From Candidatus Helicobacter avicola (GTDB taxonomy: Bacteria > Campylobacterota > Campylobacteria > Campylobacterales > Helicobacteraceae), in the NCBI GenBank assembly GCA_019112865.1, contig DXIN01000025.1, forward strand, positions 5,498 through 69,497: a DNA stretch of 64,000 nt. The letters run 5' to 3'. The translations under genes were made by a program, and so were the position numbers. The notes beneath the pieces were generated by a model. That model was given only the letters and a program-made list of their open reading frames with translations. It did not search any database and was not told where the DNA came from. Below are positions 8,306-8,596 of the stretch, one piece after another. Numbering within the stretch: position 1 is the stretch's first letter; the number at the start of each line of letters is the position of its first letter.

Positions 8306-8596
8306 ATGCGGAGTTTGTTTTGCCTAGGCATAAATCTCAAGCGCAAGGGGCGTATCGTGGTGTGGAGAATTTTGGTATTGCTGTCTTTGGCGTATGTTCC
8401 TGCGTTTGCGTATTTGGATCCGGGCAGTGGTTCGCTTTTGCTCTCATCAGTGGTTGCGGTGTTTGCCTCTGTCATATTTTTTCTCAAAAATTTATTTTAC
8501 AAACTCACTTCGCCAAGTGCTTTTCTAAGCGGTGGTTTTAGCTCTCGGGGGGGGGGGAAATTATACCCTAAAAGATCATCTTGTTTTTTACTCTGA
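8306..8596 (+). CDS. N-terminal membrane-anchor fragment of the TagF-like transferase, separated from the catalytic part by a frameshift in a poly-G tract
   Basis: Encodes a TM/anchor segment (ILVLLSLAYVPAFAYLDPGSGSLLLSSVVAVFASVIFF) and runs into the G11 tract. Removing one G fuses it in frame to 8532..10124. Alternative start GTG at 8357, preceded by AAGGGG. Confidence 0.55.
   Translation: MRSLFCLGINLKRKGRIVVWRILVLLSLAYVPAFAYLDPGSGSLLLSSVVAVFASVIFFLKNLFYKLTSPSAFLSGGFSSRGGGKLYPKRSSCFLL

Follow-up and report, generated by a model that had tools for sequence, protein, structure and literature searches.

Our analysis indicates that a run of eleven guanines (G11) in a stretch of DNA from Candidatus Helicobacter avicola is very probably a contingency (phase-variation) tract. 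The stretch, hereafter the window, is 64,000 nucleotides (nt) long (GenBank assembly GCA_019112865.1, contig DXIN01000025.1, positions 5,498 to 69,497 of the forward strand). The run lies at window positions 8547–8557, in the first gene of a candidate phosphonate-decoration operon of this enterohepatic Helicobacter. This gene is predicted to encode a TagF-like transferase with a membrane anchor, and the run sits between the anchor and the catalytic domain. A first-pass annotation of the same DNA had proposed that slipped-strand mispairing at the run uncouples the TagF-like domain from its anchor. Comparison with relatives makes this reading a well supported one: among 25 related loci the run varies from G9 to G15 and stands both in and out of frame.

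On the plus strand the run consists of exactly eleven G (ctctcGGGGGGGGGGGaaattat). The window appears to belong to a metagenome-assembled genome, and the run length is therefore read from an assembly consensus. Two open reading frames (ORFs) meet at the run, overlapping by 65 nt. The anchor ORF (8306–8596; 96 amino acids, aa) reads ...AYLDPGSGSLLLSSVVAVFASVIFF...SSRGGGKLYPKRSSCFLL and then stop; it passes through the G11 as ...GFSSRGGGKLYPKRSSCFLL before the stop, and its last 13 codons (8558–8596) form an out-of-frame tail. The catalytic ORF (8532–10124; 530 aa) lies in the +1 frame relative to the anchor ORF, reads MVLALGGGGNYTLKDH... at its start and translates the run as ...LALGGGGNYTLKDHLVFY... 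further on. Both ORFs had been described in the first-pass annotation, and our translations agree with it.

We varied the run length in silico, rebuilt the region and re-read the ORFs at each length. G10 gives a single ORF of 605 aa and G13 one of 606 aa, just as the earlier frame arithmetic had it, whereas G11 and G14 truncate the product at 96 and 97 aa and G9 and G12 at 87 and 88 aa. In the rebuilt region a one-base change in length toggles between full-length and truncated products by shifting the frame, and a three-base change adds or removes a single glycine. With G11 and the AAA that follows it, as sequenced, the frame closes at 8596 and leaves an anchor peptide of 96 aa; the catalytic domain would then not be translated.

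The run is not a product of chance. The window has three loci with runs of at least nine G or C (8547, 14457 and 53577). Across the whole window we observed six nine-base G/C matches, compared to a mean of 0.08 in dinucleotide-preserving shuffles. In the window's codon usage GGG makes up 23% of glycine codons and CGG 3.9% of arginine codons, and from this usage the probability of writing R-G-G-G as CGG-GGG-GGG-GGG is P ~5e-4.

The first-pass annotation had also suggested comparing tract length among strains, and this comparison, which yields 12 distinct alleles and two series of near-identical flanks, carries our argument. A DNA-level scan of one genome per species gave six Helicobacter(aceae) loci, protein look-ups added eighteen loci and a scan of JGI metagenome contigs added one distant locus (L013). 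A pure G run occupies the same linker position in 25 of 25 related Helicobacter(aceae) loci read as DNA, about 136–148 nt 3' of the codons for a conserved YLDPGSGS motif. The distinct alleles number 12 among the 25 loci, or 13 with the window, and their lengths range from G9 to G15. In-frame alleles are G9+AAAA, G10 (three times), G11 (five times), G12 and G14, and out-of-frame alleles are G9 (seven samples of one lineage), G10, G12 (three times) and G15, in proportions that are biased by how the loci were retrieved. The unbiased DNA-level set (L001–L006 and the window) holds two alleles in frame and five out of frame. Natural alleles occupy all three registers, and the OFF alleles fall in both alternative frames.

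Two series show different run lengths between matching flanks. In the first, 200 nt of flanking sequence are 100% identical between the window (G11+AAA, out of frame), L008 (G9+AAAA, in frame) and L009 and L010 (both G11+AA, in frame). In the second, the flanks are nearly identical and the run is G11 in L001 (in frame), G12 in L003 (out), G14 in L014 (in) and G15 in L011 (out). The run is also present in cultured isolates: H. equorum CCUG 52199, a type strain (L005), has G10 out of frame, Helicobacter sp. TUL has G10 in frame, and strains 23-1048 and 23-1044 have G12 and G10, both in frame. Hence, the run is not an artefact of metagenome assembly.

The protein relatives tell a similar story. 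Among the best 120, 55 are fused proteins with GGG or more in the linker, and another 12 are called from a start at or just before the GGG (MGGGG..., MDLALGGGGG...), which would be the signature of out-of-frame alleles. A further 30 possess the anchor and have no glycine run, some of them with broken remnants such as GGE, GGK or GGS. In the related loci the linker flanking the run is poorly conserved, yet the run is kept, which argues for selection on the run itself. In the distant locus L013 (45% identical) the anchor and the catalytic domain share one ORF without a run, and we take this fused architecture to be ancestral.

Taken with the rebuilt reading frames, the locus has the features by which contingency loci are recognized: a run of hypermutable length (about eight or more G or C) within an ORF, toggling by one unit, length polymorphism between the same flanks, and ON alleles next to OFF alleles that are, with the exception of L006, otherwise intact. 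Another run in the same operon provides an independent sign of natural G-run hypervariability. At the junction between the YidC and sulfatase parts of the next gene (position 4189), five loci of another Helicobacter lineage from the same metagenome series (L019–L023) carry G14, G14, G13, G11 and G13, and these samples were chosen without regard to this run. A sixth copy (L024) reads G12 and is cut by the contig end. All six loci (L019–L024) also carry a C10 run at position 150.

One could also argue that the frameshift is a permanent loss and the gene a fixed pseudogene. The gene is indeed broken as sequenced, one related copy (L006) has two frameshifts, and in the NCBI annotation of the source genome all that remains of the TagF-like gene is a C-terminal fragment of 383 aa; we identify this fragment with the database protein P0011, which matches window positions 8973–10124 with 100% identity and is apparently that annotation. 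We consider permanent loss very unlikely nonetheless. The reading frame stays open and conserved for approximately 520 codons 3' of the run, and the operon is otherwise intact. The run is kept at the same site and in both registers among species whose proteins diverge by up to about 40%, and decay would not keep a pure G run against the codon bias. In five of six out-of-frame loci checked (window, L003, L004, L005 and L011) the sole frame change is at the run, and for this reason we reject the pseudogene explanation for the window copy.

A different explanation is that two proteins come from the locus, one a small peptide in the membrane and the other a soluble enzyme of the TagF-like type that starts at GTG 8532 or at another internal codon. 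The catalytic ORF does open 15 nt 5' of the run and spans the whole catalytic domain, and N-truncated proteins have been called in several assemblies (P0012–P0014, P0043 and others). However, a scan of start candidates found no Shine-Dalgarno-like sequence before GTG 8532 or before any in-frame start up to codon ~143, and a protein begun at one of the in-frame starts after GTG 8532 would lack at least the first strand and the first helix of the N-terminal Rossmann-like half. OFF alleles lie in both alternative frames, hence there is no consistent internal start, and single fused proteins are found in 55 of the 120 best relatives and in the run-free L013. We rejected an internal start for a soluble enzyme because of the missing Shine-Dalgarno-like sequence and the two alternative frames, and hold two products to be the least probable explanation considered here. 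Many database relatives of the TagF-like protein are called from MGGG... or from internal methionine codons. We conclude that the run leads to systematic mis-annotation of the family, metagenome assemblies included. Exact look-ups of the 96-aa anchor product and of the 383-aa P0011 returned no records.

Transcriptional slippage or ribosomal frameshifting on the run could also yield low constitutive expression from the G11 allele, which then would not be OFF. The run is long enough for this, the two frames overlap, and it is generally known that long homopolymers can give rise to heterogeneous transcripts, although the best evidence for this comes from A/T runs. No stimulatory structure or slippery heptamer turned up in passing, in the course of work that included no search aimed at them, and across the whole window Rfam returned 0 matches and thus no known RNA element or RepG-like small RNA. 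The natural length polymorphism of the DNA suffices to explain the data, and recoding seems to us a highly improbable alternative. The pseudogene, two-product and recoding explanations are each poorly supported.

What would be switched is a single protein composed of a segment resembling a cleavable signal peptide, a YLDPGSGS loop, a transmembrane (TM) helix, a disordered glycine linker and a TagF-like GT-B domain. Hydropathy places the first hydrophobic segment at about aa 17–34, ending in VPAFA before Y much like a signal-peptidase site, and the TM helix at about aa 42–60, with lysines after it; the YLDPGSGS motif between the two is strongly conserved. The true start of the anchor gene may be GTG 8357/8360, which has AAGG upstream. 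We made an AlphaFold model of P0015, the closest orthologue without a low-complexity insert (479 aa; predicted local distance difference test score, pLDDT, 80; predicted template modelling score, pTM, 0.75). It has a long TM helix (residues 23–50), a segment with pLDDT of about 33 (residues 50–70) and a two-Rossmann GT-B domain from residue 74, strand 1 being residues 74–78. The run-encoded RGGG corresponds to residues 63–66, inside the low-pLDDT segment between TM helix and strand 1. Because the RGGG sits in a disordered linker, gaining or losing a glycine should be harmless, and the linkers of relatives read RGGGN, RGGGGN or RGGEN.

The first-pass annotation had called the enzyme TagF-like, and this label holds up. 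Pfam PF04464 (Glyphos_transf) matches with 27.1 bits (cut-off 22.1) over profile positions 245–299 of 367 (55 positions), and relatives carry precomputed PF04464 assignments. No NCBIfam model matches the window's TagF-like protein. Foldseek against the PDB gives TagF (3l7k, E 4.8e-12) as the top match of the P0015 model, with other GT-B enzymes and TagF-like capsule polymerases further down the list. The family's ISD(F/Y)SS motif aligns to TarL. Three histidines are invariant (P0015 numbering): two of them, H167 and H170, belong to the N-terminal half and the third, H294, to an RPHPQ motif. Judging from the model, TagF-like appears justified as a label for fold and family; it says nothing of the substrate.

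For the substrate we turn to the operon. The TagF-like gene is the first of a tightly packed series of genes on the plus strand, downstream of the divergent leuA/leuC (Table 1). Fusions of a cytidylyltransferase with phosphoenolpyruvate (PEP) mutase (PntC-Ppm) activate phosphonates as cytidine monophosphate (CMP) conjugates for cell-surface tailoring (PMC6697681, PMC8942020). Neighbourhoods with an Fe-dependent alcohol dehydrogenase (Fe-ADH) of the PhpC type are expected to make 2-hydroxyethylphosphonate, a pathway for which no product has been described, in Helicobacter cinaedi and C. jejuni (PMC8942020). In the window, the Fe-ADH would likewise reduce phosphonoacetaldehyde to 2-hydroxyethylphosphonate. 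A TagD-like activator next to a TagF-like transferase repeats the CDP-glycerol logic of teichoic acid synthesis, and from this we infer transfer of a CMP-activated phosphonate. That the switched enzyme transfers a phosphonate is a possibility to which we assign slightly less than an even chance. Hence, of the earlier proposal that phosphonate attachment is switched on and off, the switch is backed by the relatives, and the phosphonate is suggested by the operon context.

Parts of this neighbourhood recur in several Helicobacter genomes. The YidC/sulfatase gene adjoins the TagF-like gene in L008–L012, L015, L017, L018 and L019–L024. The block of TagF-like, YidC(-sulfatase), methyltransferase and cytidylyltransferase-Ppm genes recurs in H. 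equorum, 23-1044 and 23-1048, where the chromosomal neighbourhoods differ. The TagF-like gene is always found together with a divergent YidC/Oxa1-like core (window 10629–11270, L005:7460–8185, L007:5144–5908). Most Helicobacter loci have this core as a fusion with the LtaS-like protein; H. equorum and an alphaproteobacterial metagenome-assembled genome (L007) have it as a free-standing protein of 241–254 aa. The anchor of the enzyme is laid out much like M13 procoat, the classic YidC-only substrate: a signal peptide is followed by a tiny acidic loop, a TM helix and a basic tail. It is a testable idea that the YidC-like paralogue is a dedicated insertase for this anchor. A promoter and terminator scan of positions 8000–19500 gave counts equal to those in shuffles, and so says nothing on operon structure or polarity.

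Several points weigh against our interpretation and should be considered together. Concerning the phosphonate, the substrate is predicted from neighbouring genes only, and no PEP mutase lies within 6 kb of the gene in L007, the distant relative from an alphaproteobacterium. The sequence similarity to TagF-family enzymes in Pfam and the PDB is weak: a PDB sequence search with a 15-member profile found TarL alone (E 0.04), through the ISDYSS motif. Concerning the switch, many ON alleles were retrieved through a full-length protein, and some loci through a truncated one, which biases the proportions of ON and OFF. L006, from a Helicobacteraceae metagenome-assembled genome, has a second frameshift at a G5 run in the conserved SPSWGKE motif (L006:6950–6965). 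Either this copy is decaying or the assembly is wrong at this point, and some copies of the gene may simply be in decay. Switching within populations is a prediction from consensus assemblies. The window itself appears to be metagenome-assembled, and long G runs are error-prone in short-read assembly. Finally, the alleles with identical flanks differ at the G/A boundary (G11A3, G11A2, G9A4) and not by a plain G10, and these differences could in part be base-calling errors rather than slippage.

The last points lead to the most serious caveat, namely that an extra base has been miscalled in the window and that the majority allele is in frame (G10+AAA or G11+AA). The window matches the annotation of a metagenome-assembled genome (P0011), the closest alleles are in frame and one base off at the G/A boundary, and the ambiguity between G and A at the 3' end of the run (G9A4 versus G11A2) resembles the noise of long G runs. 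On the other hand, the sequence itself shows no mark of error, and out-of-frame alleles are common in independent assemblies, including that of the isolate type strain of H. equorum (L005). An OFF consensus is therefore entirely plausible, and we think an artefact unlikely, albeit less so than any of the explanations discussed above. An artefact would touch the state of the locus and not its nature: it would still be a contingency locus, with this copy not OFF. The first-pass annotation had predicted a phase-OFF state. The out-of-frame reading of G11+AAA stands; the state is that of an assembly consensus whose nearest alleles are in frame.

If the run is a contingency tract, then slipped-strand mispairing at replication would change its length, and each population would be a mix of ON and OFF cells. 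Helicobacter and Campylobacter are not known to have MutS1/MutL/MutH mismatch repair, a background that would favour slippage, and poly-G contingency genes for surface modification are textbook examples in both genera. Phage, antibody or host niche could then select between the two types of cell. In ON cells, the enzyme would move a CMP-activated phosphonate onto a membrane-proximal acceptor at the cytoplasmic face. The likely donor group is 2-hydroxyethylphosphonate or a methylated form of it, which the cytidylyltransferase-PEP mutase, decarboxylase, Fe-ADH and methyltransferase encoded downstream would supply. The group may then be handed on to a surface glycan or lipid by the periplasmic LtaS-like domain that the next gene encodes. 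In OFF cells, an early stop in the first gene may also reduce, through polarity, the expression of the genes that follow it.

A broader reading would go further. The run might be an old, family-wide switch at the joint between a procoat-like anchor and the catalytic domain of an enzyme that always travels with its own YidC-like paralogue and is the missing phosphonyl transferase for phosphonates activated by a nucleotide. OFF would then silence the whole carbon-phosphorus (C-P) pathway by polarity, so that the phosphonate epitope and its phosphorus cost flip as one unit. We regard this combination as speculative and rather doubtful.

Table 1. Features of the window that bear on the run and its operon (positions in the window)
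Feature	Position	Strand	Basis or remark
Anchor ORF as sequenced, 96 aa	8306–8596	+	ORF, hydropathy, orthologue model
G11 homopolymer	8547–8557	+	Predicted hypermutable tract; glycine codons of the anchor-catalytic linker; sequence, relatives, shuffles
Rest of TagF-like gene, frame of ORF 8532–10124	8558–10124	+	GT-B catalytic domain, open for ~520 codons
Low-complexity in-frame insert, GT-B interdomain linker	9043–9500 (approximate)	+	Repeat copy, absent from P0015 (479 aa)
YidC/Oxa1-like core (aa 32–213) and sulfatase-superfamily domain (putatively LtaS-like)	10629–13691	+	Linker between the two parts holds a repeat copy
S-adenosylmethionine-dependent methyltransferase	13692–14597	+	Second poly-G (G10, 14457–14466) at 3' end
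Cytidylyltransferase (PF01467, TagD/ECT type) fused to PEP mutase	14594–15916	+	C-P bond formation and nucleotide activation
Thiamine pyrophosphate-dependent decarboxylase, read as phosphonopyruvate decarboxylase	15926–17338	+	Repeat inserts ~16123–16290, 16643–16714
Fe-dependent alcohol dehydrogenase, PhpC-like	17352–18422	+	Would reduce phosphonoacetaldehyde to 2-hydroxyethylphosphonate
Repeat copies	~9043–9500, 10121–10624, 11250–11800, 16100–16750, 53892–54088		Coordinates approximate

The run in the TagF-like gene is not the only one in the window. The G10 near the 3' end of the methyltransferase gene has a left flank (ctctcG10) similar to that of the G11. With G10 the frame continues for 43 more codons, and its stop overlaps the start codon of the cytidylyltransferase-PEP mutase gene in an ATGA; with G9 or G11 it meets an immediate stop (258 or 260 aa). 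H. equorum has G10 at the same site (L005:8860). The corresponding peptides of 23-1048 and 23-1044 read 'RERERE', suggestive of a (GA)n repeat in the DNA. Where a run lies at the 3' end of a gene, it is the C-terminus that switches (PMC2823697, PMC2583950, PMC1599737), and by analogy the methyltransferase run looks like C-terminal sequence switching of the H. canadensis type. It could also alter translational coupling. A C9 run at 53577–53585 splits a 105-aa ORF (53283–53600) with cysteine motifs of the 4Fe-4S type from an 874-aa ORF (53531–56155). C10 or C7 would give a single protein of 957 or 956 aa, and the gene is probably another contingency gene in the OFF register.

The window also contains a repeat of about 500 nt with nested imperfect inverted arms (e.g., 10129–10147/10593–10611 and 10205–10227/10536–10558). 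It is read in frame as a peptide rich in S, E, K and D in the TagF-like gene, the YidC-LtaS linker, the decarboxylase and the gene at 53.5 kb, and it fills the 'small ORF' between the first two genes of the operon. Insert length varies among near-identical alleles, so that the TagF-like protein ranges from 479 to 635 aa. In being inserted in frame the repeat is like the Rickettsia palindromic elements; we know of no such in-frame palindromic element in Helicobacter. In Helicobacter sp. 23-1044, a LicC/LicA-like fusion of nucleotidyltransferase and choline kinase lies together with an EamA transporter about 4.5 kb upstream of the operon (L018:1–1618), which hints that phosphocholine-type and phosphonate-type decorations are encoded close together in this genome.

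Phosphonate surface decorations are widespread. How they are attached and what purpose they serve is poorly understood, and the transferase that acts after cytidylyl activation is largely unassigned. The TagF-like enzyme is a candidate for this phosphonyl-transferase step, and a switchable phosphonate decoration would be a reasonable inference from the sequence. Natural ON and OFF variants of one strain would offer a handle on the attachment site of the phosphonate and on its role in phage adsorption, antibody recognition and the colonization of bird and mammal guts. Annotation pipelines should expect a run in the anchor linker of this family. The mechanism is not new; the added value lies in this handle and in the conservation of the run across much of the family in Helicobacter(aceae). 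In our literature search we found no paper that ties the TagF-like family or any Helicobacter phosphonate operon to phase variation, and within the scope of that search the switch proposed here is a poly-G switch in a gene family without a previously described one.

How does the locus compare to known systems? The nearest analogues are the C. jejuni transferases cj1421c/cj1422c for O-methyl phosphoramidate (MeOPN) and 06810 of strain NCTC12662. These too have an intragenic poly-G run in a gut member of the Campylobacterota, and there the run switches the gene ON and OFF by frameshift. Both they and, putatively, the TagF-like enzyme attach a phosphorus-containing group, activated by a cytidine nucleotide, to a surface glycan. 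In C. jejuni, poly-G runs control cj1421 and other capsule-modifying genes (PMC8949473, PMC3417653), and according to PMC3417653, PMC5808241 and PMC8949473 phage and host selection act on the poly-G variants. The chemistry differs. MeOPN has a phosphorus-nitrogen bond, whereas the operon described here has a C-P pathway (PEP mutase, decarboxylase, Fe-ADH). The operon at 8.3–18.4 kb carries this C-P pathway and no phosphoramidate neighbourhood of the cj1415–cj1418 type, and we rejected its membership in the MeOPN system. Unlike in the C. jejuni transferases, the run lies in an anchor-domain linker, in the first gene of a biosynthetic operon.

The contingency genes of H. canadensis and H. pylori (e.g., lipopolysaccharide fucosyltransferases) share the genus and have G/C runs of 9–16 in genes for surface structures. 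For H. canadensis, length heterogeneity from G9 to G16 has been seen at the level of reads (PMC2823697); the text of that paper does not mention glycerophosphotransferase, phosphonate, phosphoenolpyruvate or teichoic. Another C. jejuni gene, NCTC12662 06875, resembles the TagF-like gene in family (CDP-glycerol glycerophosphotransferase) and in its place in a surface-glycan locus of the Campylobacterota. As reported in PMC8949473, 06875 is needed for adsorption of phage CP39, and its loss through frameshift-type mutations leads to phage resistance at high frequency. One of these mutations lies in a T8 run and the others, according to the authors, are scattered outside homopolymeric tracts (same source). 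06875 differs in its donor, which is assumed to be CDP-glycerol, and in lying in a capsule locus rather than in a phosphonate operon.

With TagF, TarF, TarL and the TagF-like capsule polymerases (3l7k, 8va1, 8qoy, 8a0c) the enzyme shares the GT-B fold, PF04464 and the (I/L)SD(F/Y)SS motif, and with teichoic-acid systems the arrangement in which a TagD-type cytidylyltransferase feeds a TagF-type transferase. It differs from teichoic-acid polymerases in its marginal sequence similarity, in having a signal-plus-TM anchor where TagF has a membrane-association region, in its likely CMP-phosphonate donor, in its Gram-negative host and in its YidC-like/LtaS-like partner. With Pnt/PhpC-type pathways the operon has in common a cytidylyltransferase-PEP mutase fusion followed by phosphonopyruvate decarboxylase (Ppd) and Fe-ADH; our searches of PMC6697681 and PMC8942020 gave neither a TagF-like transferase nor on/off control.

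A phosphonate-bearing glycan that is switched in a gut bacterium has a counterpart outside the Campylobacterota. The capsular polysaccharide B of Bacteroides fragilis carries 2-aminoethylphosphonate and is phase variable through invertible promoters and site-specific recombination. There the switch works by inversion, whereas here it would work by homopolymer slippage. In mechanism, the run of the TagF-like gene is the same as the poly-G contingency genes of the C. jejuni capsule, of H. canadensis and of the surface genes of H. pylori.

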